The position numbers and the translations under genes were made by a program. From contig JACPHT010000006.1 in the NCBI GenBank assembly GCA_016188475.1, positions 68,313 through 132,312 of the forward strand: a stretch of 64,000 nt of DNA, written 5' to 3'. Below are positions 4,298-64,000 of the stretch, one piece after another. The first letter of the stretch is position 1. Every line of letters starts with the position of its first letter. Source of the stretch: Candidatus Uhrbacteria bacterium (lineage in GTDB: Bacteria > Patescibacteriota > Patescibacteriia > UBA9934 > GWF2-40-263). Under the pieces are notes generated by a model that did no database searches, was not told where the DNA came from, and saw only the letters and a program-made list of their open reading frames with translations.

Positions 4298-6202
4298 ATG
4301 TCAAATCAAATACCTCATTCTAGATTGTTCGTTTTGCAGGAAAACGGACCGATTGGAAAACTCACAGAAAGAAGTGGTGTTGCTGTTTTTGAACAACTTC
4401 CAAATACAAGGTGTATAGGATCGGTGATCACTTTGGGTCGTTTGCGTTTTTCACTTATTATTTTTTTCACACTGTTATTTATTTTTTTTGTTCGTTCGGT
4501 CCAACTTCAAATTTTTCAAGGAAATCATTTCCGCGCTCTTGCTGAATCGAATAAATATAGAACCGAACGTCTTGTTCCACAACGAGGTTTGATTTTTGAT
4601 AGAAATGGAATCGTGCTTGCACAGAACATTCCATCTTTTGTCTTAACAATGACAATAGCGGATTTGCCAAAGAACGAACAAAAGCGTTATGAGTTATTTG
4701 ATATTGTAAGCAAATTGGCCGGTGTTCAACCAACAGACTTGGATTTACTCATGACTCAATATGCGAAAAATCAAACCGAAGCGATCCCAGTTAAGAGAAA
4801 CATAAATTTTGAAAGAGCAATGAATCTTGAAATCGAAATCAAAAATCTTCAAGGATTTAATTTACAAACTTCAACTTTAAGAATGTATCCGCAGACGATC
4901 CCTTCACTTTCACATATTCTTGGATACACAGGGAAAATTACCGAAGATGATCTTTCTGTTTTAAAAGATCAAGGATATAAACCAATTGATGTTATTGGAA
5001 AAACAGGCGTTGAACGCGTAGATGAAAGCTTGTTACGAGGTCAGCCTGGCGAGGTCGTGACCGAAGTTGACGCAAGAGGAAAAGAATTGACAGTTGTGTC
5101 ACGTACTAATCCTGTTGTCGGAGCTAATCTGACTCTTACAATAGACTCTGAATTTCAAAAGTTTATTGAAACGCGACTTGAAAAAACAATGCAATCCGTT
5201 GGTTCAACAAAAGGTTCGGTCGTTGTGCTGAATCCAAAAAACGGAGAAGTTTACGCGCTCGTGAGCTTGCCGACTTTTGATAACAATCTTTTCGCGCAGG
5301 GAATCGAAGAAGATACATATAAAAAATTAGCTGACGATAAAGATCAACCTTTATTTTTTCGAGCGATTGCGGGTGAATTTCCATCAGGCTCCACATTCAA
5401 ACCGTTTGTTGCCTACGCCGCGCTTGTTGAAAAAATTATTAACGAAAATACGTCGTTTCTTTCAACAGGCGGAATTAGAATTAACGAATGGTTTTTTCCT
5501 GATTGGAAAGCCGGTGGGCACGGGATTACAAATGTTAGAAAAGCGCTTGCTGAATCAGTGAATACATTTTTTTACATTATTGGCGGCGGGCTTGATCAAA
5601 TCAATGGTTTAGGTGTTGAACGGATAACTGATTACGCAAGACGTTTTGGATTTGGTAAACCAACAGGGATTGATCTGCCGTCAGAAGCCGATGGATTTTT
5701 GCCTTCGAAGGAATGGAAAGAAGAAGTCAAAGGAGAACGTTGGTATGTCGGCGACACGTATCATCTTGCGATTGGACAAGGAGATTTATTAACAACGCCG
5801 CTTCAGATGGCGCACGCGACCGGAATTATAGCGAACAAAGGTGTGGATGTTTTACCACATGTCGTAAATAAAATAAACGATGTTGAAAAAGATATATCAT
5901 CTCAAACACTCGACTCGCTTGATTCGTATGCTCTTTCTGTTGTGAGACAGGGAATGCGACAAACTGTGACACAGGGAAGTGCGCGTTCGTTGTCTGTATT
6001 ACCGGTTTCTGTTGCTGGAAAAACTGGAACAGCCCAAGCTCCAGGACATGAGAAATATCATTCATGGTTCACGGGTTTTGCTCCGTACGAGGATTCGGAA
6101 ATCGCCTTAGCAATCATTGTTGAAGACGGTGGAGAGAGCACTGACGCCGCAGTCCCTCTTGCAAAGGAAATAATCTATTGGTGGTTGACAAATCGCAGAT
6201 GA
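4298..6202 (+). CDS. mrdA: penicillin-binding protein 2 (peptidoglycan D,D-transpeptidase)
   Basis: N-terminal TM helix, dimerisation domain, SGSTFKPF (SxxK) and KTGTAQ transpeptidase motifs; sits in the mreBCD context. Confidence 0.85.
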   Translation: MSNQIPHSRLFVLQENGPIGKLTERSGVAVFEQLPNTRCIGSVITLGRLRFSLIIFFTLLFIFFVRSVQLQIFQGNHFRALAESNKYRTERLVPQRGLIFDRNGIVLAQNIPSFVLTMTIADLPKNEQKRYELFDIVSKLAGVQPTDLDLLMTQYAKNQTEAIPVKRNINFERAMNLEIEIKNLQGFNLQTSTLRMYPQTIPSLSHILGYTGKITEDDLSVLKDQGYKPIDVIGKTGVERVDESLLRGQPGEVVTEVDARGKELTVVSRTNPVVGANLTLTIDSEFQKFIETRLEKTMQSVGSTKGSVVVLNPKNGEVYALVSLPTFDNNLFAQGIEEDTYKKLADDKDQPLFFRAIAGEFPSGSTFKPFVAYAALVEKIINENTSFLSTGGIRINEWFFPDWKAGGHGITNVRKALAESVNTFFYIIGGGLDQINGLGVERITDYARRFGFGKPTGIDLPSEADGFLPSKEWKEEVKGERWYVGDTYHLAIGQGDLLTTPLQMAHATGIIANKGVDVLPHVVNKINDVEKDISSQTLDSLDSYALSVVRQGMRQTVTQGSARSLSVLPVSVAGKTGTAQAPGHEKYHSWFTGFAPYEDSEIALAIIVEDGGESTDAAVPLAKEIIYWWLTNRR

Positions 6203-8911: not shown

Positions 8912-9008
8912 AAATATTACTGTCTGAGCCTGTCGAAGGCTGTTGATTACTTAAATCAATTACTAACGACATTATGACCGTATTTCCTAAAAAATACCAA
9001 TTCTGTTT

Positions 9009-9050
9009 GACCTTTCAGTCCTTTCCGACCTTTCTGACTTTTCAGACCTT
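9009..9050. repeat. 9-bp-periodic GACCTTTC tandem array (copy 2 of 4), directly upstream of the pilM -35 region
   Basis: gacctttca|gtcctttcc|gacctttct|gacttttca|gaccttt, followed by TTGACA (9055-9060) and AGGAGG (9108-9113) before the ATG at 9121. Confidence 0.5.
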
Positions 9051-9120
9051 TGCATTGACACTGTCCACGAAGTATGTTCAAATAAATTCGCTGAAGGCAA
9101 AAGCCTTAGGAGGTACAGTA

Positions 9121-10317
9121 ATGTCGCGAAAATTGCTCCTTGGACTGGATATCGGTTCTTCTTCAATCAAGCTGTGTCAACTCGCAGAGACTGGAACTGG
9201 GCTCAAGCTAGTCAAGTTCGATCAGTGTATGTTGCCACCAAAGGCTATCGTAGATGGTGCTTTGATAGACTACAGGGCAGTCGTGGAAAAGCTTCGTGAA
9301 ACAGCAAGACTGAACAAGTGTGAAGGTGCTCAATGTGCGATCTCGATGTCAGGGCACAATGTTATCGTCAAGCAGATCTCGATTCCAGAGATGACTCAAA
9401 AGGAACTGGAAGAGTCAATGCAGTGGGAAGCGGAGCAGTACATTCCGTTTGACATAAAGGATGTCAACGTTGATGTTCAAATCCTAAATCCCAAAGCAGG
9501 TTATGGACAGATGAAGGTTCTGTTCGTTGTCGCGAAGAAGGACACCATTAATGACTACATTCATGCGGTCCAAGAAGCGGGTCTTCGTCCAGTAGTCGTG
9601 GACATCGACACGCTCGCGGTCCAAAACGCATTCGACTTAAACTACGGCTGTCCTCCAAACGAGGTTGTTGCGCTTATCAATGTTGGTGCGTCATGCATCA
9701 ACATCAATGTGATTTCAAACGGAATTACAACCTTCACGCGTGACATATCGAATGGCGGGTTGCTCATGACAGAAGAGACAATGAAACAGCTCAATGTTTC
9801 GTGGGAAGAGGCTATGCACTACCAAATCGCTGGTGATGACACGGTTTCAGATTCCGGGACAGAACTCTTTCGTGAAGTGAGAAAACTTGAGGAACGCGTT
9901 TCCGAAATTCTTGTAACTGAAATTCAGCGTTCTCTCGATTTCTTCGCTGCAACGACCATCAATGCTGACATCGCACGAATTTACTTGAGCGGCGGTGCTT
10001 CTCAACCTTCAGCTTTCATAAGGGCTCTTGAGCGGCGACTGAAAATTCCTGTTGAGATAATCAATCCGTTCAAGAACATTAGCGTTGACCCGTCCGCTTT
10101 CAACCCCGATCTTCTTCGCACGATGGAACCGATTGCCGCAGTCGCGGTTGGTCTTGCAAGACGTTTCAAGGGCGACACAAGGATCGGTGGAAATGATGTC
10201 AGGATCAATCTCTGCCCATCTGACACGAAGTCTTCAAGATACTCACTCGGCAATCCTTTCAAACTTCCAATCTCTGTCAGGATTCCTTTCACTAAGAGAG
10301 TATTGACTCTCTCGTAA
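9121..10317 (+). CDS. pilM: type IV pilus assembly protein PilM (actin-like ATPase fold), fused at its 3' end to a remnant of the pilN start
   Basis: LLGLDIGSSSIKL, KQISIPEMTQKELEESMQWEAEQYIPFD and VVDIDTLAV are typical PilM blocks. AGGAGG lies 7 nt upstream of the ATG at 9121. The C-terminal tail ...GGNDVRINLCPSD resembles the PilN N-terminus (MxRINLLP). Confidence 0.8.
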   Translation: MSRKLLLGLDIGSSSIKLCQLAETGTGLKLVKFDQCMLPPKAIVDGALIDYRAVVEKLRETARLNKCEGAQCAISMSGHNVIVKQISIPEMTQKELEESMQWEAEQYIPFDIKDVNVDVQILNPKAGYGQMKVLFVVAKKDTINDYIHAVQEAGLRPVVVDIDTLAVQNAFDLNYGCPPNEVVALINVGASCININVISNGITTFTRDISNGGLLMTEETMKQLNVSWEEAMHYQIAGDDTVSDSGTELFREVRKLEERVSEILVTEIQRSLDFFAATTINADIARIYLSGGASQPSAFIRALERRLKIPVEIINPFKNISVDPSAFNPDLLRTMEPIAAVAVGLARRFKGDTRIGGNDVRINLCPSDTKSSRYSLGNPFKLPISVRIPFTKRVLTLS

Positions 10318-11980: not shown

Positions 11981-12062
11981 TTAATGCAGTTGTTGTACTA
12001 TGTCTCCGGGCCATCGGACTGTCGCCGTTGTTCCCTCCGACACAGCACAACAACTGCATTAA
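11981..12062. repeat. structured hairpin element S (copy 1): 23-bp stem, ~36-nt loop; related copy at 29977..30057
   Basis: ttaatgcagttgttgtactatgtc...gacacagcacaacaactgcattaa. The stem is perfect on the minus strand with two G-U pairs. The loop tccgggcca(t/g)cggact... is shared with copy 2. Confidence 0.6.
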
Positions 12063-29976: not shown

Positions 29977-30057
29977 TAAATCAGTTGTCGTGCTATGTCT
30001 CCGGGCCAGCGGACTCTTCGCCGCTGTTCTCTACGACATAGCACGACAACTGATTTA
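29977..30057. repeat. structured hairpin element S (copy 2): perfect 22-bp stem, ~36-nt loop
   Basis: taaatcagttgtcgtgctatgtc...gacatagcacgacaactgattta. Shares loop and stem positions with copy 1 apart from compensatory changes. Confidence 0.6.
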
Positions 30058-49131: not shown

Positions 49132-49173
49132 AATTTTAGGAGTAACTGATTTCTAATGGCTAATAGCTAATGG

Positions 49174-50088
49174 CTAAAGGCTGATATCAGTTACTTCATA
49201 TCCCCAAAATGCTTCTCCAAGGGCTTTTCGATTAAAAATGTTAGCTGTTCCTCGCGAAGCAGGTGAAAGCATTATCTCCAAAATAAGCGGGTTATTTTCG
49301 TTTGCCAAAATTGTATAACGAGCAAAAGCGTTTTGCGCCTGAATCGCGCGAACATCTGTCAAAACTCCGTTGACTTTTAACCTGAACGTTTTCCAATCAA
49401 TATCCGCCTCGATTTCTGAAATATTTTTTTGATCTTTGACTTGCGGTTTTCCTTTAAGTTGATCTATAAACGATTCAATCTGATCAGTGATTCCTGTTAC
49501 ATACGACACAGAATCATCAAACAATCCAAGATGAATCTCGGTGCGACGATTTTCAACAAGTTCTTTATATTGTTTGTTTGAAAGCCAGATGAGTGTCGAA
49601 TCGCTTTTTAGGTTTTCGTCTTTTTGCCAAAAAAAAGGTAAAAGTATTTTATTTCCATTTTCAAGCGAGTTTGTTTCAAGTATGCCTTTTTCCAAAATAT
49701 TTTCGTAAACTGGTTCTGGAGGATTTGGTAATTGTGTGCCGATCGCGGCTGAAGTGTAGTCGTCAAAATATTTTTTGCGCGTAGCAGTTGAAGCATCGGT
49801 TTCTTTTTTCAAAGATCGTTCCCAAGAAAAAACTCCTCTGACTTTCGGTTCCCAAAAATTTACCGAAATGATTCGATCGGCATCTGTTCCTTCAAATAAG
49901 GAAATCGCTTTTCCACCAACACCAAATATAGTCTCTCGCAAAATGATTTTCGAACCAGCTTCAATATTGAGAAGCGCTGCCGCTTGTTCCGGAGTTTTAT
50001 CTGAAACAATCTGTTGAGTGCAACCTGCCCCAACAAAAAGAATCGCACAACATGTCAGAGCGACAGAACGATTCAGTCTTAAGTTCAT
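49174..50088 (-). CDS. hypothetical lipoprotein
   Basis: Signal peptide with lipobox-like LFVGAGC; no recognisable domain. Confidence 0.45.
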   Translation of the reverse strand: MNLRLNRSVALTCCAILFVGAGCTQQIVSDKTPEQAAALLNIEAGSKIILRETIFGVGGKAISLFEGTDADRIISVNFWEPKVRGVFSWERSLKKETDASTATRKKYFDDYTSAAIGTQLPNPPEPVYENILEKGILETNSLENGNKILLPFFWQKDENLKSDSTLIWLSNKQYKELVENRRTEIHLGLFDDSVSYVTGITDQIESFIDQLKGKPQVKDQKNISEIEADIDWKTFRLKVNGVLTDVRAIQAQNAFARYTILANENNPLILEIMLSPASRGTANIFNRKALGEAFWGYEVTDISL

Positions 50089-52086: not shown

Positions 52087-53456
52087 GAAAACGTTCTTTT
52101 CAAATTTTCAAATTTCTCTGAATCTTCACGCAGAACAAAAAAATCAGTGAAATTTAGCTTCTCATTATATTTTTGTAGCAAATCTGAATACTTAAAAATA
52201 GGAATATACTCCACGCCATTTACCAATCGTTTTGCAACATAGATCATCGTTGCACGCTCTGAATCGCCTTCCCCAAAATGAGAAAGTTCGTTCAAAACAG
52301 AATAAGTAAAATACCTGATCTTGTTTTGATAACAAAATTCTGACAAACCCGAGAGCAAAATTTGATCTTCTTCTTTGGATTTTTGTAAACGCAAAATTCG
52401 TTTCGCTGGAATTCGTTTTACAATATGCTCTGACCAATAATTTTTCGGATTTTTTGATGACTCAAAAATTTGCTCAATCACAGGACCGTCGCGCAACTGC
52501 GTATATAAGTATGGATCCGTGGGAATTTTCAATGAGATCTCTCTGGTTCGAATTGCTTCTTCCAAATAATGTGAAAATCCCGCCTTTGTTTTATGATAAT
52601 AAACTTGATCTATCATGTGATAACGAGCAAGAAGCATGTCTTCATACGCTCGCACTCCGTTTTCAGAAAGAGTCATGATCAGTTGATCATCGTGCTGTGC
52701 AACCCCAAACGATGAGATCAACCAATCAACATCATAATTCCCATACGCGACTCCACAAAAATAACTGTCACGCAAAAGATAATCCATTCGATCAGAATCT
52801 GCCTCGCCAGAAATAAGTCCTTTGAGAACTCGTCCGAGCCCAGGAATACGTACTGAAATTTTTTCCAAGTATTCAGACGGAAAAATATCTTTGTGCATGA
52901 TCGATGCGACATCTTGTGCGAACGATTTTTCCAAAACACCTTCTTGAACAAGAGTTTGAATCAATAGAATGCTGTAATCTTCGTGAGCGGATTTTCGATT
53001 AGGTTTTTGTTTCCACCAAGACCAGTCAAATGGAAAATCCTCGAGCGATGGAAAAATATATTCTGACGCGTGAGAAAACGGACCGTGCCCAATGTCGTGT
53101 AAAAGTCCTGCAACACGAACACGAGAACGAAGGGCTTGAATGTCAACATCAAAAATTGGAACGTTTCGTGAATCTGAAAACAAATGATCAAATAGTCGTC
53201 CGGCAACATGCATTGTCCCAATCGAGTGTAAAAATCTGTCGTGAGTTCCACCAGGATAAACATAAGAATGCAAAAAACCAAGCTGGCTTATGAAACGCAA
53301 ACGCTGAAAAAACGGATGATCAATGATCGTCCGTTCAAATTCGCTAAATGAAATGCGATGATGAATTGGATCGCGAAGTTCGTATGAGGACATAAAAAAG
53401 TAGCTGATACTTCTTTCTTCTTGATACTTGCTACCAATTATCATTCGAAATGTCAA
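52083..53456 (-). CDS. HD-domain phosphohydrolase, dGTPase-like (dNTP triphosphohydrolase family)
   Basis: HDRFLHSIGTMHVAG...LLHDIGHGPFSH...DSDRMDYLLRDSYFCGV HD motifs. 4-bp overlaps with the genes on both sides, so co-operonic. Confidence 0.75.
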   Translation of the reverse strand: MTFRMIIGSKYQEERSISYFFMSSYELRDPIHHRISFSEFERTIIDHPFFQRLRFISQLGFLHSYVYPGGTHDRFLHSIGTMHVAGRLFDHLFSDSRNVPIFDVDIQALRSRVRVAGLLHDIGHGPFSHASEYIFPSLEDFPFDWSWWKQKPNRKSAHEDYSILLIQTLVQEGVLEKSFAQDVASIMHKDIFPSEYLEKISVRIPGLGRVLKGLISGEADSDRMDYLLRDSYFCGVAYGNYDVDWLISSFGVAQHDDQLIMTLSENGVRAYEDMLLARYHMIDQVYYHKTKAGFSHYLEEAIRTREISLKIPTDPYLYTQLRDGPVIEQIFESSKNPKNYWSEHIVKRIPAKRILRLQKSKEEDQILLSGLSEFCYQNKIRYFTYSVLNELSHFGEGDSERATMIYVAKRLVNGVEYIPIFKYSDLLQKYNEKLNFTDFFVLREDSEKFENLKRTFS

Positions 53457-55423
53457 TCAAACTTGATGGTTTGCCCTGGTTTTAATGTGCCTGTATTTTT
53501 TTGCACGGTAGGTGTTGAAGAAAGTAAAGGGGTATTAGGAATCTGAACATTCGGTTTCTTATTTCGATTACGTTTTCGTTTTTTAGGTGAACTAACAGAA
53601 AAATTTACTGGCGACCCAATTGAGTTCGCCTTTGGAAGTGAAACGACTGGCGGTTTTTTAATTTCACTTGAAAGCCAATCATCTTTAAGCTGAGAAGCGG
53701 GCGTTGAAGCACTGCCTTCGACCACCGGACTTGGCGAGGTCACATCTGAAAGCTGGGCAAGCTCAGGCAATACATGTGTTTTCTCTTCAGCCCTTTCAGT
53801 CCTTTCAGTCTTCTCTGGCTTCACATTCAACCTGTTCAAACTAATTGGCTCAGAAGTTGTCTGACGCTCAACTATCGTTCCTTCAGACGGTCTTGGCGGT
53901 AATTCAGATTTTGAACGAACCTCTGTTCGTTTTGGTTTACCATGCTTACGTTCTTCTCTAACAATTTCAATACACTCCTCGCAATAAATCGGTCGAGAAC
54001 GATCAAGTTCAACCGCTAAAACAATTTGTTTATTACATCGTGTGCAATTATATTCAAAACGAGGTTTGCGCGATGATTTTACAAGTTTCTTTTTTTCTTC
54101 TGCTTCCTTAAGCAATGTGTCCATGTCAGCATCTTCCATCCCGCTCCATTTCAAAATCTTTTCTTCAATTTCTTTTCGTGGATTTGCGAAACGTTCACGC
54201 GAAACTTTAATGACCCTATCAGCAGAACCGGTTTTTTTTGAAATTGGTGGCAACGTAATCGCTGAAAACGGCTGGCTTGAAACTCCATCAATAAGCAACT
54301 TCAAATAAACGTTGTATTTGGGAAGATTAATAATATCTTCGGGCATAAAACGCGGAGCGAATTCCTTTTCCATATACAATCCGTCTGGCGAACCGACACG
54401 ATATGAAATTATTGTTCCAACGTTTCCGAAGACCGCTTCGCGAACTTCATCAGTGAGTTGCGCGATATATTGATGAGCCATTGTTAAACACAAACGATAT
54501 TTGCGAGCTTCGGAAAGAATTCCTGCAAACGACTCGACAGCAAAATTTTGAAACTCATCAACGTACAAATAAAAATCTTTTCGATCTTTTTCAGGAACGT
54601 CTACTCGTTCCATTGCGGCAAGCTGAAGTTTCGTGATGAGGAGCCCGCCAAGCAAACGAGAGTTGTCTTCACCAATGCGACCCTTTGAAAGATTTATGAT
54701 GAAAATCTTTTCAGAATCCATTATTTCGCGAATGTGAATCGTCGATTTTACTTGCGCGACAATGTTTCGAATAACTGACGCTGATAAAAATTGCCCGATC
54801 TTGTTTTGAATTGGTGCAACTGCCTCTTGCGCGTACTTATCGTTATACGATGCGAATTCTTTGAGCCAAAATTGCTTGACAACAGGATCTGTGACATTTC
54901 CGACAATTCGATTTCTAAATTCTTCCTCTGAAAGCATGCGATTTATTCCAAGTAATGTCTGTCCGGGATTATCAAGAAGAGCCAAGATCGTGTTATTCAA
55001 AATGTATTCCATACGCGAAGACCACATGTTTTCCCAAATCTTCTTGAAAACACCCATCATTCCGCTCGCAACCAAATGCTTATGGCGTTCGCTCACAGCT
55101 TCCAAAATATTAAAACCAATCGGGAAATCAACATCAGACGGATTGAAATAAATTACATCGTTGATTCGCCAGCTTGGAATGTAATCAATCAATTTTTCAG
55201 CCGTGTCTCCGTGTGGATCAACATAACAACAGCCGTGTCCTGCATAAATATCAGACAAAATAAAATTTTCGAGTAAAGTCGTTTTTCCCATGCCTGTTTT
55301 TCCAATCACATAAACATGGCGACGTCTATCGTCGGTTTTGATTCCAAACTTTGTCATCGAATTTCTGAAATTCGTTTTTGCAAAGTATGTGACTTCATTT
55401 TCGTGGTCGTGATTATGGGACAT
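53453..55423 (-). CDS. FtsK/HerA/TraG-superfamily P-loop ATPase with C-terminal CxxC-N17-CxxC zinc ribbon and Lys/Ser/Pro-rich tail (T4SS coupling-protein-like)
   Basis: Walker A VIGKTGMGKTT, Walker B FYLYVDEFQNF, zinc ribbon CTRCNKQ...CEECIE. No TM helix. The first ATG is at 55423; the ORF-track start at 55438 is a TTG. Confidence 0.55.
   Translation of the reverse strand: MSHNHDHENEVTYFAKTNFRNSMTKFGIKTDDRRRHVYVIGKTGMGKTTLLENFILSDIYAGHGCCYVDPHGDTAEKLIDYIPSWRINDVIYFNPSDVDFPIGFNILEAVSERHKHLVASGMMGVFKKIWENMWSSRMEYILNNTILALLDNPGQTLLGINRMLSEEEFRNRIVGNVTDPVVKQFWLKEFASYNDKYAQEAVAPIQNKIGQFLSASVIRNIVAQVKSTIHIREIMDSEKIFIINLSKGRIGEDNSRLLGGLLITKLQLAAMERVDVPEKDRKDFYLYVDEFQNFAVESFAGILSEARKYRLCLTMAHQYIAQLTDEVREAVFGNVGTIISYRVGSPDGLYMEKEFAPRFMPEDIINLPKYNVYLKLLIDGVSSQPFSAITLPPISKKTGSADRVIKVSRERFANPRKEIEEKILKWSGMEDADMDTLLKEAEEKKKLVKSSRKPRFEYNCTRCNKQIVLAVELDRSRPIYCEECIEIVREERKHGKPKRTEVRSKSELPPRPSEGTIVERQTTSEPISLNRLNVKPEKTERTERAEEKTHVLPELAQLSDVTSPSPVVEGSASTPASQLKDDWLSSEIKKPPVVSLPKANSIGSPVNFSVSSPKKRKRNRNKKPNVQIPNTPLLSSTPTVQKNTGTLKPGQTIKFD
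53784..53816. repeat. 9-bp-periodic GAAAGG(A/G)CT tandem array (copy 3 of 4), inside the ATPase CDS
   Basis: Plus strand ctcttcagccctttcagtcctttcagtcttctc; encodes ...ERTERTERAEE... on the minus strand. Confidence 0.45.
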
Positions 55424-55466
55424 AGGAAGAAAGGTCAAAAAGTACGGAAAGGTCTGAAAGGTCGAA
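55424..55466. repeat. 9-bp-periodic GAAAGGTC tandem array (copy 4 of 4), in the 5' leader of the ATPase gene
   Basis: gaaaggtca|aaaagtacg|gaaaggtct|gaaaggtcg. In mRNA sense it reads GACCTTTC x4 just upstream of the ATG, as at pilM. Confidence 0.5.
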
Positions 55467-55471
55467 AAACG

Positions 55472-57040
55472 TCAAACTGGTAAATTTGGTGGAACAAAAT
55501 CGTCACTTTGCGTTAATGGTTTTTCTTTTACCGGACTTGTTGGTGGTTTAACATCTGGGACTTCGGCGGAACCTATTGTGTCTTCGATCTTCGTTTCACG
55601 CTGGTTAAAGCCAGTGGCTTCAGCGTCTTCCTCCTTTCCTTCAGTTTTATTCATCCCTTCCATTTCTTCCTTCTCTTCCCTCCCCACTGCCAAGGTCTCC
55701 TCTTCAAACGTAATTGGAAGTCCAACAGGAGGTTCAGCTCGTCGAGCTTCGGCTTTCTTAACCAACGGCGCCTTAAATCCAAATGTCGGGAAGTGCCAAA
55801 GCGAAGCTATTTCCTCAACATTCAGAAATGATGGATCGGCTCCGATTCCCCAGCTTCGGTTTTGGTACGCCTTCATAAGCGTATGCTGTTTTTTTGTATA
55901 AACCCAACGCATCCAAAAATAATCATCTTTAGGAACTTGTGGAATAAAGAGCTCAAACTTATTCAACGCAAGATCAGCATATTGATTCAGGATGCCTTTT
56001 ACCATTCCAGTTCGTTCAACTTTCACAAACGCGTTCTTTTTCGCGACATAAAGAATTCGAATTTTTGTTCCCATTCCAACTTTTGAAAGTTTTCGGTATA
56101 AAGCATCTGCCTCTTTTGTTTCTTGTAAAGGCAGTAAAACATACGGCTCTTTTTTTGTTTCTTCTGTTGTGATGCCAAATAAGCCTCCAAGATCAGTTCC
56201 GGTTGCATTTGCGACCACTCCAATTGGCCACGAAACAACTGAATCAATAGCGGAAACTATCGCGCTCTTTTTTGCTTGCTCTGTTTTACCATAAAGTTTA
56301 TTGAGTCGTGCAATTCCTTCCTTAATCCAATCGTTCGTCGATGGCTGAACGATCATTTGAAACCAAAAATGTTCTCCTGGACGCATTTTTGCGAGTTGTT
56401 CAAGCGTGTGTCCAAGTGGATCCTTGATCTCTCCAGTTACCTTATCCTCAAATTCTATGTATGTACGAATTGGATACATTGAAGGTTTTGCAAGTTTGAA
56501 TTCCCCGCCCCACATTTCATATTCATTATCTGGATATACATTTGGAAATTTGGTTGAATAATCCTCGACTTCTGAAATTTCAGCATCAGGATAATGAGCA
56601 TAAATTCCGGCTTCGATCATGTCACGAAAACGAGTTTGCGTTCGAACAAGAAATTGGATATACCCCTCGGCTGAAATTATTTCAAAAGAAAAACTTGGAT
56701 GATATTTTCCAACTATCCACGTTTCCTTCCAAGTTAGAGTCGACTTGGATCCATACAAACTCGAAAACAAATTCTCAAGCGCTTTTGGCGTTTGTTCTGT
56801 CATTGAAGGAACGTCTATCGCTAACAAAACAAATTTTAAAGTCTTTGACCATTCGCCCTGACGATAGTTTTGCCACATCATCACAAAACCCCAACCAAGT
56901 GTGATCGCAATCGGAATCCATCCAAACCAAATAAAAAAATTAAAAAGAATGACGTCAATTGGACGTTCAAAAAACGGAACTGCTACAGCTGAAGTTTGAA
57001 CTGCTTGTTGAACGATTGGTATTGCAAAAAGCGGAAGCAT
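55472..57040 (-). CDS. hypothetical membrane-anchored protein (2 N-terminal TM helices, large soluble domain, acidic C-terminal tail); partner of the ATPase
   Basis: 522 aa. TM helices around residues 1-25 and 35-60, no recognised domain, C-terminal Glu/Lys/Pro-rich low-complexity region. 33-bp gap to the ATPase gene. Confidence 0.45.
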   Translation of the reverse strand: MLPLFAIPIVQQAVQTSAVAVPFFERPIDVILFNFFIWFGWIPIAITLGWGFVMMWQNYRQGEWSKTLKFVLLAIDVPSMTEQTPKALENLFSSLYGSKSTLTWKETWIVGKYHPSFSFEIISAEGYIQFLVRTQTRFRDMIEAGIYAHYPDAEISEVEDYSTKFPNVYPDNEYEMWGGEFKLAKPSMYPIRTYIEFEDKVTGEIKDPLGHTLEQLAKMRPGEHFWFQMIVQPSTNDWIKEGIARLNKLYGKTEQAKKSAIVSAIDSVVSWPIGVVANATGTDLGGLFGITTEETKKEPYVLLPLQETKEADALYRKLSKVGMGTKIRILYVAKKNAFVKVERTGMVKGILNQYADLALNKFELFIPQVPKDDYFWMRWVYTKKQHTLMKAYQNRSWGIGADPSFLNVEEIASLWHFPTFGFKAPLVKKAEARRAEPPVGLPITFEEETLAVGREEKEEMEGMNKTEGKEEDAEATGFNQRETKIEDTIGSAEVPDVKPPTSPVKEKPLTQSDDFVPPNLPV

Positions 57041-57096: not shown

Positions 57097-57128
57097 TACC
57101 TCCAGCTTCTTCATCCTCTCCAGCTTCT

Positions 57129-58022
57129 TCAGCTTCTCTTCTTCATCTTCTCCCAAACCACGAGCAGTGGACTTGCTAAAAAAATTGAAGAGTATGTTCC
57201 AACTGTGATTCCAATAATAAGGGCAAGCGCAAAAGGTTGCGTGCTATCGCCGCCAAAAATGAAAATTGCAATCAAAGCAAGGATTGTTGTCAAACTTGTA
57301 TTGAGTGATCTAAGAAGAGTTTGCTCAATGCTCATTTCTACTGTTTCCGATAATGTATGAGCTGTTCTACGAAGCAAGTTCTCGCGTGTGCGGTCAAAAA
57401 CAACGATTGTATCGTTGATTGAATAGCCAAGAACTGTCAGTGCGGCCGCGATAATCGCGGCACCGACTTCCCATCCAAACCAAACACCAAATAACGCGAA
57501 TGCCCCGATCATGATAACAACATCATGAAATGCGGTTAGGACTGTAATGGTTGCATATTTCCACGAAGCAACAGGTTCCGAAACCTTACGAAACGCCCAT
57601 GCAACATAAAGTCCAATCAAAATAAGCGTCAAAATAACACCAATAGTCGCTGTGCGTCTCAGTTCGCTCCCGATCACTGGTCCAACTGATTCAAAACTCA
57701 ACTCTGTTAAATTACCATGGGCTGTTTTTATTGCACCTAAAACCGATTGATGCTCATCTTCCGAAAGCATCTGCGTGCGAATCAAAAAACCATTTTCACC
57801 TGACGTTTGAATCGTGGCGTCTTTATATCCAGCATCATCAAACGTCTGTTTCATTGCGCCAACACTTACAGGTTGATCGAATTTAATTTCAATGAGACTT
57901 CCACCTGTAAAATCAACTCCATATTTCAATCCCGGATAAACAATAAGAACAAGGCTCGCAACAACGAGAAATCCTGAAAGAAAAAACCAGTAATTTCTAT
58001 TTTTGATAACTTGTAATTTCAT
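57129..58022 (-). CDS. secF: protein-export membrane protein SecF
   Basis: 297 aa, 6 TM helices, N-terminal ...GVDFTGGSLIEIKF periplasmic domain signature. Confidence 0.85.
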   Translation of the reverse strand: MKLQVIKNRNYWFFLSGFLVVASLVLIVYPGLKYGVDFTGGSLIEIKFDQPVSVGAMKQTFDDAGYKDATIQTSGENGFLIRTQMLSEDEHQSVLGAIKTAHGNLTELSFESVGPVIGSELRRTATIGVILTLILIGLYVAWAFRKVSEPVASWKYATITVLTAFHDVVIMIGAFALFGVWFGWEVGAAIIAAALTVLGYSINDTIVVFDRTRENLLRRTAHTLSETVEMSIEQTLLRSLNTSLTTILALIAIFIFGGDSTQPFALALIIGITVGTYSSIFLASPLLVVWEKMKKRS

Positions 58023-58023
58023 A

Positions 58024-58162
58024 CCCGGTAGTACAACAATGATTTATATTATCGATTAATTATTTCTTTTGCTAACATTGGTTCGACTACTCATGTTGAA
58101 TGTCATACAGGCTGTGTTAAAGCACGGAAGAACAGGCGACAGATCATTGTTGTCCTACCGGG
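58024..58162 (-). promoter_or_regulatory. ~139-bp structured element E (copy 1) with 20-bp terminal inverted repeats, abutting the secF start codon
   Basis: cccggtagtacaacaatgat ... atcattgttgtcctaccggg (1 mismatch). The 3' arm (mRNA sense) ends 1 nt before the secF ATG. The secD TAG stop lies in the other arm. Confidence 0.5.
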
Positions 58163-60164
58163 CATTATTCGATTTTTTTACGCAAAAGAGCGCAAACTTC
58201 CGCGCCCATTTCCATGCGAGAACATTTTTGAGATAAACACGACTTACCATTATCGCACTAAACATGCTCAATATAACTCCGATCGCAAGTGTTAGCGCAA
58301 ATCCGCGAATAAAACTTGAACTAAACCAGTACAAAACAGCGGCCGCTATCAATGTTGTTAGGTTTCCATCACGAATTGAAGTCCACGCGCGCGTGAACGC
58401 CTCATCAGTCGCTGAACCGAAATCTCGTCCAGAATGAAGCTCTTCCTTCAAGCGCTCAAAAATAAGAACGTTAGCGTCAACTGCCATACCAATCGACAAA
58501 ACAAATCCCGCTATTCCAGCAAGCGTTATTGTGACATCAAAAAAACGATATGCCGCAAGGTTTATAACTGCGAAAAACAAAAGCGCAAGAGTCGCAATAA
58601 GTCCTGGCAATCTATAAAAAACTAGCATGAAAAGCCCAACAAGAATTAACCCAATAAGCCCAGCGTTGATACTTTTTGCAAGTGATACAGCTCCGAGAGT
58701 TGGACCAACGGTTTGTTGTGAAACCAAATTTATCGGAACTGGCAAAGCTCCAGCATTCAAATCCTGCGCAAGCAAACGCGCTTCATCAACAGTGAAATCA
58801 CTAGTTATTACAGCTTGACCGCCATAGATTGCCTGTTGAACTCTCGGAGCTGAAATAAGTCCTCCATCAAGAAAAATCGCTATCGGTTCTCCAACATGAG
58901 CCTCTGTTAGTTTTCCAAATAAATCAGAACCTTCATCGTTGAAGTCAAGCAAAACATTCGGCGCTCCTGATCTTTGGTCAAATTGAACTGACGCTCGCTT
59001 TAGGTGTTTTCCTGAAAGCGCTGTATTTTTCCAAGGTGAACTTGGAACAATGTCAGCTTCGGTTGTGAACGGCATCAAAATGCGCTTTACAGTTACAGCC
59101 GAGACAGGACGCTCATCGCGTTTATAAATTATGTGAAAACCAAACTCTGATTCAACAACATCTGAAATTTCTCCAACTGGAGTTGAAAGAGCCGCAAGCG
59201 CAAAAGCGTCAACGTACTTATCTGGTGTTGCCCACCCAAGATCTTCCACTCCTTCGAGTGTTGAGAAGCTTTCCGGAGTTGCAGATTTTTTCAAATTTTG
59301 AATTTTGATTGAAGCTTCAATTTCAGGGATTGGTTTTTCACATCGCAGTTTACCTTCGTAGCAAACAAGAACATGCGAAAGCAACATTTCTTTTGTATCA
59401 CCAACTTCTTCAACACGGAAAATACTAATACCTTCGTTAGTTTCCAAAACCGAATTTGAAATTTGACCGGCCTTCAACTTTTTTTGTTTGGCTTGAATAA
59501 AATAATCTGAAAATTGAGAATTTGCTGTAATATTTTTGATTGTTGATTTTGCGAGTGGAACTTTGCTATTTTCGGAAATAAGTTTGTCAAAATCTTCGCC
59601 AGCGAGCGCTCGGTCCAAAACAGCATTCGCAGATGCTCGATCATTTTTTTGCATTTCTTTAAGTTGCGTTTTCTCGTCATCGGTCAAAGCGCGTCCAGGC
59701 TCTTTAACAGGTTCCTTAAATTCAAGAACTGGTGTTTTGCCGATTTGCTCAATAGCTTGTGTAACATCTTTGATTCCTGCGAGTTCGATTACCAAACGAT
59801 ATGTGCCGCCAGTTGAGATTGTTTGAACAATAGGCTCTGAAACTCCAAACGAATTAACACGACGTTCGATCACGTTTTTAACTCCATCGAGAGCGTTAAC
59901 TCGCTCTGTAGCAGGTATTTCCGTCATGTCAGCCTCGTAAACAAGATGCGTTCCACCCTGAAGATCGAGTCCAAGACGAAAAGGAGTTTCGGCAATTTTC
60001 ATTCCATCAAGACTAACAGCGCGCACAGCTTGATTCCACAACTGTGGAAAATCATAGCCAGCGAACACAAGTGTCAAGACAATCATGAGTACGCCAATGA
60101 TTCGTCTTGCCCAAGGTTTTTTAGTTTTATTAACTGACTTTCTTTTAATTTTCCATGTTTGCAT
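58155..60164 (-). CDS. secD: protein-export membrane protein SecD (long form)
   Basis: 669 aa; N-terminal TM helix, large periplasmic region, C-terminal 5-TM SecD/SecF core (..LIGLILVGLFMLVFYR...). Confidence 0.85.
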   Translation of the reverse strand: MQTWKIKRKSVNKTKKPWARRIIGVLMIVLTLVFAGYDFPQLWNQAVRAVSLDGMKIAETPFRLGLDLQGGTHLVYEADMTEIPATERVNALDGVKNVIERRVNSFGVSEPIVQTISTGGTYRLVIELAGIKDVTQAIEQIGKTPVLEFKEPVKEPGRALTDDEKTQLKEMQKNDRASANAVLDRALAGEDFDKLISENSKVPLAKSTIKNITANSQFSDYFIQAKQKKLKAGQISNSVLETNEGISIFRVEEVGDTKEMLLSHVLVCYEGKLRCEKPIPEIEASIKIQNLKKSATPESFSTLEGVEDLGWATPDKYVDAFALAALSTPVGEISDVVESEFGFHIIYKRDERPVSAVTVKRILMPFTTEADIVPSSPWKNTALSGKHLKRASVQFDQRSGAPNVLLDFNDEGSDLFGKLTEAHVGEPIAIFLDGGLISAPRVQQAIYGGQAVITSDFTVDEARLLAQDLNAGALPVPINLVSQQTVGPTLGAVSLAKSINAGLIGLILVGLFMLVFYRLPGLIATLALLFFAVINLAAYRFFDVTITLAGIAGFVLSIGMAVDANVLIFERLKEELHSGRDFGSATDEAFTRAWTSIRDGNLTTLIAAAVLYWFSSSFIRGFALTLAIGVILSMFSAIMVSRVYLKNVLAWKWARKFALFCVKKSNNAR

Positions 60165-61631: not shown

Positions 61632-64000
61632 TCACACACCATGACAACGCTTGAATTTCTTCCCGCTTCCGCAATAGCATGGGTCATTTCGTCCGAGTTT
61701 TTTATCCTCTCCCACTCGCCCCATTTCTCCCTTTTCTCCCTCTCCTCCAGCCATAACAATTCCCTTCTTTTCAAAAACTGAACGATCAAGCTCTGCTTGA
61801 ACTTTCATATCAACCGCGTGTTTGGCGTATTTGAAAAACGAATATGTAATTTCAGAATTGATCGAGGACAGTAATCGCTGAAATAAATCAAATCCTTCTT
61901 TTTTATATTCAACGAGCGGATCGCGCTGACCATATCCGCGCAAACCAATTCCAGTGCGAAGCGCTCCCATTCCAGCCAAATGATCAATCCAAAGAATATC
62001 TATCGCCCGCAAAATCACTCCGCGTTCGATGTGATAAATTTCTTTTTTGTCTTCAAACAAATCATAAAGTTGATTATATGAACCGCGAACAATTTCCATA
62101 ATTGCCTCAATCAATTTCGTTTGTTTTTCCGCCAGATCTTTTTTATCTTCAAGCGAACCATATTCTAATTTTAGAATTTCATCTTTTTGAATTTCCGAAA
62201 GCGGAATAATAGTTTGAAGTGTTTCAACAATCTCTGACTTTTTTTGTTTTCTATCTTTGCTCTCTTGGTCCTCTGGGCCATTCCCCAAATGGAACAAAAC
62301 GACCTGTTCAACTTCACCCTCGATAATATCGAGCACACGTTCTTTCAATTTCTCCGGCGAGTTCGCAAACGTTTCCAAAATATCTCGACGTCGCGCGTAA
62401 ATGACTTCTCGATGTTTGTTCAAAACATCATCGTACTCAAGCAAATGTTTTCGAGTGTCAAAATGATGACCCTCAACACGTTCCTGCGCTTTTTCCATTG
62501 CGCGCGAAACCATTTTGTTTTCAATCGGCATGTCGTCAGGAATTCCAAGACGATCCATCATTGACTTTGTTCGATCTGATCCGAAAATTCGCATAAGATC
62601 ATCGTCCATTGAAAGATAAAACTGCGATGAACCAGGGTCTCCCTGACGCCCTGAACGGCCGCGCAACTGATTGTCAATGCGACGAGCGTCATGACGCTCT
62701 GTACCTATAACATGCAACCCACCGAGTTCTTTTACGCGCTGTTCTTCTAAAGCGTCCGGCGGATTTCCACCTAAACGAATGTCAACTCCGCGTCCTGCCA
62801 TGTTTGTTGCGATAGTAACAGCGCCGACTCGTCCGGCTTGAGCAATGATTTCAGCTTCGCGCGCGTGGTTTTTCGCGTTCAAAACCTCGTGCGGAACTCC
62901 AGCTTTTGTTAATAGTTCAGAAAGCACTTCGTTTTTTTCAACTGAAACTGTTCCAACTAACTGCGGTTGACCTTTTTCATGAAGCGCTTTGATTTCTTGA
63001 ACAAGCGCTGTAAATTTTCCTTTTTCAGATTTATAAATTCGATCTGGCAAATCATTTCTAGCTGCGGGTTTGTTTGTTGGAATTTCAGTCACTTCCAAAT
63101 CATAAATTTTCGCAAATTCTTCTGCTTCTGTTGCGGCAGTTCCTGTCATACCTGAAAGTTTTTCGTACATGCGAAAAAGATTTTGAAAAGTAATTGTCGC
63201 GAGTGTTTGGCTTTCTTTTTGAATCGCAACTCCTTCTTTTGCTTCGATTGCTTGATGAATTCCTTCTGAAAAACGACGGCCTTGCATAAGACGACCAGTA
63301 AATTCATCAACAATAATTACTTCGCCGTCTTTCACGATGTAATGAATGTCTTTTTTGTAATTCGCTCGCGCTCGAAGCGCAGTGTCAGCAAAACGAGCGT
63401 GCATTCCAGCTCCAACAGCATAAAGATTTTCAACTCCAAGAGCGCGTTCAATTTTTTCAATTCCGGCGTCTGAAAGTGTTGCTGTTCTCATTTTTTCGTC
63501 AACGTTAAAATCTTCATTCTCTGTTAAACCTGCTACAATTTGCGCAAAACGAGAATACAAAACATCTGATTCCTCTGACGGAGCTGAAATAATAAGTGGA
63601 GTTCGAGCTTCATCAATCAAAATAGAATCGATTTCATCAACGATCGCGTAATGCAAATCTCTCATCACGCACTGCTCAACAGTCGGCGACATGTTGTCGC
63701 GCAAATAATCAAAACCAAATTGATTGTTTGTACCATACGTGATGTCAGCCGTGTATGCTTCTTTGCGCGGACACGGTCGCAAATAATCTTCGCGAACGTG
63801 AAATGATTCGGTTTGAATTTCAACCTCTGTCTCCACTTGTCTTCCATTGTCTTCCATTTGCTTATATTCCGGATCATAAATCAATCCACCATCTTGCTGA
63901 ATACATCCAACGCTCAAACCTAAAAAGTGAAACACTTGTCCCATCCAAACAGTGTCACGGCGAGCGAGATAATCGTTGACCGTAACAAGATGACAACCTT
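61632..64000 (-). CDS. secA: preprotein translocase ATPase SecA (N-terminus extends beyond the window end)
   Basis: DEAD-like motifs (MAGRGVDI, TNMAGRGVDI), C-terminal zinc finger KLGRNDPCYCGSGKKFKRCHG. The minus-strand frame stays open to 64000 (..HLVTVNDYLARRD..). Confidence 0.9.
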   Translation of the reverse strand, partial: GCHLVTVNDYLARRDTVWMGQVFHFLGLSVGCIQQDGGLIYDPEYKQMEDNGRQVETEVEIQTESFHVREDYLRPCPRKEAYTADITYGTNNQFGFDYLRDNMSPTVEQCVMRDLHYAIVDEIDSILIDEARTPLIISAPSEESDVLYSRFAQIVAGLTENEDFNVDEKMRTATLSDAGIEKIERALGVENLYAVGAGMHARFADTALRARANYKKDIHYIVKDGEVIIVDEFTGRLMQGRRFSEGIHQAIEAKEGVAIQKESQTLATITFQNLFRMYEKLSGMTGTAATEAEEFAKIYDLEVTEIPTNKPAARNDLPDRIYKSEKGKFTALVQEIKALHEKGQPQLVGTVSVEKNEVLSELLTKAGVPHEVLNAKNHAREAEIIAQAGRVGAVTIATNMAGRGVDIRLGGNPPDALEEQRVKELGGLHVIGTERHDARRIDNQLRGRSGRQGDPGSSQFYLSMDDDLMRIFGSDRTKSMMDRLGIPDDMPIENKMVSRAMEKAQERVEGHHFDTRKHLLEYDDVLNKHREVIYARRRDILETFANSPEKLKERVLDIIEGEVEQVVLFHLGNGPEDQESKDRKQKKSEIVETLQTIIPLSEIQKDEILKLEYGSLEDKKDLAEKQTKLIEAIMEIVRGSYNQLYDLFEDKKEIYHIERGVILRAIDILWIDHLAGMGALRTGIGLRGYGQRDPLVEYKKEGFDLFQRLLSSINSEITYSFFKYAKHAVDMKVQAELDRSVFEKKGIVMAGGEGEKGEMGRVGEDKKLGRNDPCYCGSGKKFKRCHGV

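Follow-up and report, generated by a model that had tools for sequence, protein, structure and literature searches.

A 64,000-nt stretch of DNA from Candidatus Uhrbacteria, an uncultured groundwater bacterium (GCA_016188475.1), referred to below as the window and used for all coordinates unless a relative is named, carries four short arrays of the unit G[A/T]CCTTTCN, repeated with a strict 9-bp period in 3-5 units per array. Array A (9009-9053, + strand) is in non-coding DNA, in the spacer that separates the divergent promoters of znuA and pilM, and consists of five units, which read GACCTTTCA GTCCTTTCC GACCTTTCT GACTTTTCA GACCTTTGC in the sequence. Array B (328-363) has its unit on the - strand, in the GACCTTTC orientation, and supplies four in-frame units to a helicase-nuclease coding sequence, in the linker from UvrD_C to PD-(D/E)XK. 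Array C (53786-53812, + strand, gene on the - strand) comprises approximately three degenerate units, GCCCTTTCA GTCCTTTCA GTCTTCTCT, in the variable C-terminal tail of an ATPase coding sequence, and is the weakest member of the four. Array D (55424-55471, that is, 55429-55466 plus a degenerate first unit reaching 55471) has its unit on the - strand and contains four units and the degenerate one; from 55471 to 55424 on the - strand it reads CGTTTTTC GACCTTTCA GACCTTTCC GTACTTTTT GACCTTTCT TCCT, and the next codon is ATG. The four loci had been proposed in an original prediction made from the letters alone. All four arrays were found there or directly adjoining, and Tandem Repeats Finder returned a period of 9 for 4/4. 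The unit matches it reported were 72-93%; the arrays are thus imperfect, and none is a homogeneous, near-perfect tract.

The exact 8-mer of the unit was present in 12 copies in the window, compared with an expected 2.1 +/- 1.4, and none of 100 shuffles attained that number. The window has four chains of 9-spaced units when up to one mismatch is allowed, and 0/100 dinucleotide shuffles yielded any chain or even one 9-spaced pair. When the arrays were masked, the 8-mer GAAAGGTC/GACCTTTC was left with six copies and ranked 1835 of 21551, its sub-words were ordinary, and GAAAGG ranked 772 among 2070 hexamers. None of the six isolated 8-mer copies outside the arrays had periodic neighbours. The 8-mer is therefore not over-represented through a GAAAGG bias resembling a ribosome-binding site, a possibility that the original prediction had raised against itself, and the shuffles together with the masked k-mer ranks rule out word bias or chance as the source of the arrays. 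The four arrays are real, non-random and related to one another.

The divergent gap between znuA and pilM is 209 bp, and array A occupies the space between the two -35 hexamers in it. The putative pilM promoter (9055-9083, + strand) was read from the sequence as a -35 TTGACA (9055-9060), a 17-nt spacer and a TG-extended -10 TCAAAT (9078-9083); a consensus promoter scan did not call it, its -10 being without A at position 2. However, the block TTGAC(A/T), 17 nt, TGTTCAAAT upstream of pilM was kept in three relatives and was degenerate in a further one (L005, -35 TAGACC), and on account of this conservation the block was taken as the pilM promoter. The putative znuA promoter (8971-9000, - strand; TTGGTA, 18-nt spacer, CATAAT) was called by the consensus scan, and its block is also conserved in relatives. 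Array A ends 1 nt before the pilM -35 and starts 8 nt beyond the -35 of the znuA promoter. The pilM coding sequence (9121-10317, + strand, 398 amino acids; Pfam PilM_2, 1.3e-63) agrees with the gene call in L001/L002, and has a strong, perfect Shine-Dalgarno sequence, AGGAGGT (9106-9112), while most neighbouring genes, and most genes of relatives, have none. Array A is thus not part of the pilM 5' leader; it precedes the conserved promoter and probably stays untranscribed.

Array A was absent from the orthologous spacer in the relatives L003, L004, L005 and L215, although the promoter is conserved there. The space between the -35 hexamers in the relatives was approximately 20-30 bp of unrelated sequence, with an extra open reading frame (ORF) in L215. 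The array is therefore derived in the lineage of the window. In two other samples of the same strain array A was identical. An N-terminally extended pilM ORF (8974-10317, 49 additional amino acids), which would translate array A, was rejected, since a stop codon interrupts the extension in L003 and both the gene calls and Pfam start at 9121. In the same gap, a znuA-proximal block, TTAGGAAATACGGTCATAATGTCG (8967-8990, - strand), resembles the ribosome-binding site and start of pilM, TTAGGAGGTACAGTAATGTCG (9106-9126), and could open a 22-codon ORF running into the znuA start.

Array D accounts for nearly the entire 48-nt gap from the stop of the DUF8128 gene (55472) to the ATG of the ATPase gene (55423). 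The ATPase is a VirD4/TrwB-like protein of 656 amino acids (53453-55423, - strand; Pfam TrwB_AAD_bind), and its start was fixed at 55423 because the N-terminus MSHNHDHENEVTYFAKTNFRNS is conserved in L158 and L159. The DUF8128 gene (55472-57040, - strand) is directly upstream in the same orientation. Neither a Shine-Dalgarno nor a promoter-like site was found in the 48-nt gap, the latter by the promoter scan, and in the mRNA sense array D is a CU-rich run that is predicted to be unstructured (z = +0.57).

The relatives treated this gap very differently. In L159 (GCA_016208545.1), whose core ATPase is 96.5% identical to that of the window at the amino acid level, the gap is also 48 nt and is identical to D at 40/48 positions (83%), with no indels. 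In L153 and L155/L156 (core ATPase 97.4% identical), unrelated, hairpin-forming repeats stand in the position of D, with hairpin z-scores of -3.5 in L155 and -2.0 in L153; in L158 (ATPase 91% identical), the gap is only 4 nt. The ATPase proteins of L155 and L156 are identical and the repeat number in their gaps is different, which shows that slippage is active in the lineage. A hairpin, attenuator or terminator role for D was rejected because D itself does not fold, though the gaps of relatives do. The gap is hypervariable among close relatives (L153 9929-10000, L155 4707-4872, L156 3200-3325, L158 9035-9038). That of L153 holds a GGTTTTGGG/CCCAAAACC hairpin, and those of L155/L156 hold long purine-rich repeats followed by their complement; in these hairpin-bearing relatives the fold puts the upstream stop codon beside the downstream start codon.

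The two intragenic copies had been predicted to be translated as GXY-like and ERT repeats, and this was borne out. Array B (EKGLKGQKGREGQ / KGLKGQKGREGQ) reads GLKGQKGREGQ, with four G-X-Y triplets, and array C encodes EKTERTERAE. The helicase orthologue of L005 (83% amino acid identity) has two units, GAAAAAGGAC TGAAAGGTC, encoding EKGLKGQ; compared with the four units in the window, this points to a gain of two units (+6 amino acids). A 9-nt-periodic (E/Q)(K/R)(T/S/A) repeat was found at the position of C in L153, L155 (where it is GAAAAGTCG GAAAGGTCG GAAAGG) and L156, and was absent in L159. Array C is an old coding repeat that belongs to the family only loosely. Array B was identical in three further samples of the strain. 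No variation in unit number was seen within the strain for any array, the other assemblies being two for A, three for B and one each for C and D; these assemblies match the window exactly, are probably one clone, and say little on polymorphism. The suggested phase variation between strains accordingly found no support among these probably clonal samples.

A degenerate three-unit pattern matched at least 114 stretches in many phyla. Among the matches listed, collagen-like coding repeats (GKD/GQK/GPK) and unrelated tandem repeats made up the majority, and the outcome was the same for a scan of viral sequences. Random sequence is thus the wrong null expectation, the cross-phylum matches are not evidence of homology, and the unit alone is not unique. 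The degenerate pattern was rejected as a definition of the family, and a stricter pattern with alternating GAC/GTC was more useful. Another Uhrbacteria metagenome-assembled genome (MAG; L011) carries GTCCTTTCC GACCTTTCG GTCCTTTCC GACCTTTCA GACTTGTCT in frame in KsgA, and this array is 91% identical to array A over 35 bp, the odd GACT unit included. GCA_016208545.1 holds the cassette at two loci, KsgA and the ATPase gap. The stricter pattern found coding arrays in a KsgA orthologue (L121) and in the GyrB linker between the Toprim and C-terminal domains (L149), and arrays in short gaps before Lon (L124), before an amino-acid-kinase-family gene (Pfam AA_kinase; L134/L141, in the opposite orientation), before a gene without a Pfam match (L139) and before RNase H (L146). 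These metagenome contigs are low in GC and Uhrbacteria-like by assumption, the taxonomy having been verified for L121 alone; the non-collagen cassettes with the alternating GAC/GTC core thus come from a Uhrbacteria MAG and from low-GC metagenome contigs of assumed taxonomy. The genes adjoining the arrays (pilM, ATPase, Lon, AA_kinase, RNase H) have no common function.

The coding arrays were always in variable protein segments. In KsgA, the loop from GDxL to NIPYNITS ranges over 40-75 residues across 120 homologues and contains many different repeat-derived insertions, and the SDLSVLSDLSDLS array is in only 3/122 aligned KsgA sequences (L011, L121 and P0241). This KsgA/RsmA loop (L011 6392-6440; homologues P0241-P0360) is a hot spot of in-frame repeat-derived insertions in Uhrbacteria, of which TPSLHD repeats, SFGLRPQDD and SLGFARDDRG are examples. 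By Tandem Repeats Finder, the relatives also have numerous further arrays with units of 7-9 bp, repeated 4-7 times, both between genes and in the tails of proteins. In L159, five of the seven gaps of at least 30 bp contain short tandem repeats, and some units of 7-8 bp, such as AAAACCY/GGTTTTR and AGTAGNAG-like ones, recur across loci and genomes (L153, L155, L159). The GACCTTTCN cassette is one repeat family among several in the lineage.

The structure of the unit was derived from 23 copies in independent intergenic arrays. Conservation was 96-100% at positions 1 and 3-7 and 78% at position 8, while position 2 was A or T and position 9 was nearly uninformative; part of this position-specific conservation was caused by the search patterns that found the arrays outside the window. 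At the junctions of six independent intergenic arrays (A, D and those of four other contigs), adjacent units agreed at position 9 in 2/17 cases. Arrays A and D, whose detection involved no pattern, appear to behave alike: 6/12 of their departures from the unit consensus fell at position 9. The bases at position 9 matched at 4/4 units between L146 and the KsgA array and at 3/4 between L139 and L134, and the position-9 order A,C,T is common to A, D, L139 and L134. These shared states at the free position are suggestive of whole-cassette copying, with a common cassette of at least 27 bp, although the test was post hoc and fails a strict correction for multiple testing.

Taken together, we favour, with moderate confidence, the reading that the arrays are a lineage-specific family of dispersed short tandem-repeat cassettes persisting at permissive sites, and not the operator of a common regulon. 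The cassette would be 27-45 bp of 9-bp units with the core GACCTTTCR-GTCCTTTCM-GACCTTTC. It may arise, or be copied to a new place, by slipped-strand mispairing together with short-patch recombination or template switching, and the unit number may afterwards be altered now and then by slippage. A cassette would be kept only where extra sequence is harmless, such as short spacers between genes and protein loops or linkers that are hypervariable. The cassette fits there readily: adding any whole number of 9-bp units leaves the reading frame intact, and stop codons are nearly absent from the unit in all six frames. The local effects would be by-products: back-to-back promoters approximately 26 bp further apart for A, a CU-rich, unstructured stretch ahead of a start codon that lacks a Shine-Dalgarno sequence for D, and a few charged residues added to flexible linkers for B and C. 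The original prediction had also offered the arrays as an insertion or recombination signature linking accessory genes. The origin part of that suggestion fits the lineage-specific A, the unit number of B and the similarity among cassettes, but the genes concerned are not accessory.

Several points weigh against this reading. The lack of a dedicated function and the mechanism that would copy a 27-45-bp cassette to new loci are inferred, and everything seen of this genome amounts to approximately 64 kb. The free position 9 and the toggling position 2 would not be expected from simple recent slippage of one 9-mer; the arrays are therefore not recent duplications of a single unit. In addition, L011 and L121 share the KsgA array without a single difference over 44 nt, the longest identical run of the gene (permutation p = 0.002), while the two KsgA genes are 79% identical overall and 60% identical at third codon positions. 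Similarly, D is 83% identical between the window and L159 with no indel, compared with 66% at the third codon positions of the adjacent gene. Such conservation of the KsgA array and D above the synonymous level could reflect nucleotide constraint, homogenisation among copies or recent short-patch transfer.

A less likely alternative, which we regard as tentative, is that the arrays are cooperative sites for a sequence-specific DNA-binding protein, with one protomer per 8-bp core, acting on nearby promoters or on chromosome organisation in general. Strict 9-bp phasing, a conserved 8-bp core and one free position are what such sites might present; array A adjoins the -35 hexamers of two promoters, the arrays in L139 and L146 are directly upstream of -10-like elements, the core is common to at least two Uhrbacteria genomes, and D and the KsgA array are conserved above the level of synonymous sites. 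However, roughly half of the arrays are located within coding sequence, no function is common to the neighbouring genes, four orthologous promoters have no array A, and in three relatives D has been replaced or is missing. There is no promoter space between D and the ATPase ATG, no candidate binding protein was identified, and the position-specific conservation owes something to the search patterns. The iteron-like regulator sites of the original prediction share with the arrays a conserved core and fixed phasing, but the operator of a regulon is not supported, the cassette being found inside KsgA, GyrB, helicase and ATPase genes and beside unrelated neighbours, with A missing in four relatives and D replaced or missing in three. 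A wider version, in which the arrays are a genome-wide recognition array for a Uhrbacteria protein and selection keeps both coding and non-coding copies, seems unlikely to us. The candidates would be a factor for the nucleoid or for segregation, a signal for DNA uptake or self-recognition in pilus-bearing, competence-dependent cells, or a trans-acting enzyme that copies the cassette; if true, such an array would explain why the KsgA and ATPase-leader arrays evolve slower than synonymous sites.

A role at the RNA level was also considered, in which the GACCUUUC-orientation pyrimidine-rich leader would aid ribosome loading without a Shine-Dalgarno sequence, act as a Rho-loading site, or form duplexes between arrays of opposite sense (D with C or B). 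D is single-stranded in the predicted fold and is directly before a start codon without a Shine-Dalgarno sequence, the arrays of L124 and L139 are placed similarly, most genes of the lineage have no Shine-Dalgarno sequence, and the predicted pairing of D with C (-33 kcal/mol) is the best site of the ATPase mRNA, with D-B at -46.6 kcal/mol. Nevertheless, the strong duplex energies are trivial for arrays that are complementary, A is upstream of a conserved promoter and probably untranscribed, the L134 array in an equivalent gap has the opposite orientation, and the D position in relatives holds hairpin-forming repeats or is a 4-nt gap. Furthermore, D and C are inherited separately, L159 having D without C and L155 having C without D, and this lack of co-inheritance rules out the cis pairing of D with C. 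An RNA role is thus quite improbable. The same can be said, and a little more firmly, of contingency loci, in which high-frequency slippage would make the spacing of promoters (A) or the length of proteins (B, C) differ within a population. Array B has 2 vs 4 units between species, other repeats of the lineage differ between L155 and L156, and A stands at a pilus-gene promoter, which such variation classically targets. But the arrays are imperfect, adjacent units differ at position 9 in 15/17 junctions, which are interruptions of the kind that stabilise repeats, no unit-number variation of A-D was seen within the probably clonal strain assemblies, D and the KsgA array keep their unit number across species, and a 9-bp unit is unable to switch a reading frame on or off. 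A coincidence of composition or coding, through Shine-Dalgarno-like GAAAGG bias or collagen-like Gly-X-Y, is largely refuted and retains hardly any probability. The 9-mer arrays of many phyla and viral contigs do mostly encode collagen-like GKD/GQK/GPK, the coding repeat at C is old, and four triplets of B follow the G-X-Y pattern; however, A and D are non-coding, the coding arrays are in three frames and both orientations, no shuffle reproduces any array, and the 8-mer is not enriched outside the arrays.

The family of dispersed cassettes was then set beside known systems. The short tandemly repeated repetitive (STRR) sequences of heterocystous cyanobacteria are families of short units (heptamers) that occur in few tandem copies, are dispersed and lineage-restricted, and lie mostly in short non-coding gaps; to our knowledge, they have no established function. 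The Uhrbacteria arrays likewise have a short unit in tandem at several loci (four in 64 kb here), are lineage-restricted and belong to one of several co-existing families. They differ in that the unit measures 9 bp, roughly half of the copies fall in frame within housekeeping genes, the arrays of 3-5 units look like copies of a 27-45-bp cassette, and the host has a reduced genome of the candidate phyla radiation (CPR). By this comparison, the STRR families are the ones that we favour as closest in kind. The Rickettsia palindromic elements are selfish DNA of 100-150 bp, palindromic and in frame in protein-coding genes. They resemble the cassettes as a small family in frame in permissive housekeeping loops and in intergenic DNA of a reduced genome, and the KsgA loop, the helicase linker and the GyrB linker do carry the array in frame, the KsgA copy in 3/122 sequences; the cassettes, however, are direct repeats of 27-45 bp with no hairpin potential.

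Contingency loci include the 7-bp repeats in the hmw promoters of Haemophilus influenzae and the TAAA tract upstream of Neisseria nadA. Short tandem repeats by the promoter of a surface-structure gene, whose unit number can differ between lineages by slippage, are common to both, but the Uhrbacteria arrays are imperfect, showed no polymorphism among the probably clonal assemblies of the strain, have a unit that is a multiple of 3 and are also at unrelated housekeeping loci. Among tandem operators and iterons, the MetJ met-boxes (8 bp, 2-5 copies), the heptads of the omega repressor and the Rep-bound plasmid iterons share with the arrays contiguous direct repeats, a short conserved core, fixed phasing, occurrence at several loci and sometimes a position abutting a -35. 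In contrast, the arrays have no coherent regulon and no identified cognate protein, many are inside genes (two of the four in the window, and those of KsgA and GyrB), and their conservation at orthologous control regions is uneven, A being absent in four relatives and D kept in L159 but not in L153, L155 or L158. The same 9-nt unit, GGTCNGAAA or GGAAAGGAC, underlies collagen-like GQK, GPK and GKD repeats of many bacteria and phages; B has only four such triplets, A and D are non-coding, and the arrays of C, KsgA and GyrB are in other frames. A collagen-like repeat protein was rejected because the array-coded peptides contain no long run with Gly at every third residue.

Other candidates were rejected as well. 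A DNA uptake sequence is expected at approximately one copy per kb genome-wide in both orientations, compared with the 12 exact 8-mers per 64 kb here, six of which are within arrays. No flanking inverted repeats, target duplications or conserved flanks were found at the arrays; a mobile element of the MITE (miniature inverted-repeat transposable element) or REP (repetitive extragenic palindrome) type was discarded, since the arrays have no flanking inverted repeats and no fold, and the copies share no flanks. A known RNA family was discarded too, for Rfam at the gathering threshold gave no match in the window or in five array-bearing loci, and L146 gave none at E <= 1. A literature search on tandem repeats in Patescibacteria returned nothing relevant.

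The genomes of CPR bacteria are small and streamlined, so that persisting repeated DNA in them needs explaining. In at least one lineage of Uhrbacteria, families of very short tandem-repeat cassettes fill intergenic slots and hypervariable loops of essential proteins (KsgA, GyrB, the helicase-nuclease and the VirD4-like ATPase). They can mislead gene callers, as the false 49-amino-acid N-terminal extension of pilM and the alternative ATPase starts illustrate, can confuse assemblers, and could serve as strain markers. If the conservation does reflect protein binding, the arrays would offer a first entry point into how these uncultured organisms organise or regulate their genomes in a sequence-specific way; on the present evidence, the finding is modest and descriptive.

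The PilM of the window has an identical counterpart in the database, a protein attributed by name to Candidatus Uhrbacteria (CPR/Patescibacteria), and the Pfam annotation describes an ordinary core, syntenic chromosome. The annotated genes encode the UvrD/PD-(D/E)XK helicase-nuclease, DciA, MreBC, PBP2, ZnuABC, PilM, GreA, LysRS, Alr, FtsQ, GluRS, ClpB, PriA, Fmt, cell-envelope proteins, AlaRS, MurJ, an HD-domain protein, the VirD4/TrwB-like ATPase, DUF8128 and SecDF. The gene order around pilM is kept in L003, L004, L005 and L215 and that around the ATPase gene in L153, L155, L156, L158 and L159, and the ATPase has hundreds of homologues, 65-88% identical, in Uhrbacteria and other Patescibacteria. 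The pilM and ATPase genes had been called atypical, accessory genes; this description does not apply to loci that are syntenic in several Uhrbacteria relatives or to an ATPase conserved across the lineage, and the idea that the arrays mark accessory or horizontally acquired genes was rejected for the same reasons. The PilM protein shares 60-66% identity with its counterparts in Myxococcota and other deltaproteobacterial MAGs, a likeness that may stem from an old horizontal transfer, but it is fixed in the lineage.

Some further observations were made in the window and its relatives. SecD (58155-60164) has peptidyl-prolyl isomerase (rotamase) domains of the PPIC type inserted in its periplasmic region, as it does in relatives. 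The cumulative GC skew tops near 28 kb, and gene orientation changes there from mostly + to mostly - (approximately 17-35 kb); this peak could be a replication terminus or merely transcription-linked skew, and the four arrays have no consistent orientation relative to it. Other tandem repeats in the window are CTCCAGCTTCTTCAGCCT x2.2 at the 3' end of SecF and the following gap (57100-57152), CATCTCTTC x3.1 in the DUF8128 tail (55652-55679), CTAATGG x4.3 (49153-49182) and TGTCTTCCAT x3.1 (63828-63858); at the orthologous SecF-end and DUF8128-tail positions, relatives have different repeat units. A GC-rich hairpin, GCGGGGTCTGGGGACCCCGC, stands beside the 9-mer arrays in two contigs, at approximately 820-835 in L139 and upstream of the array on the - strand in L146. 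In L146 a second tandem array, ATCCGTAN x4, immediately precedes the GACCTTTCN array; a long closing-helix sequence, with no Rfam family match, then follows.

Finally, a dispersed element of approximately 72 nt was found twice in the window (11989-12061 and 29985-30057) and once each in L011 (approximately 5424-5496) and L159 (approximately 2292-2360). It folds as one long hairpin of 26 pairs with the conserved inner core ATGTCTCCGGGCCAnCGGACT...CGACAT. The four copies, which are intergenic, without a U-tail and without an Rfam match, show compensatory double changes at nine pairs, and the element is a candidate for a new structured RNA or a REP-like DNA hairpin of Uhrbacteria.

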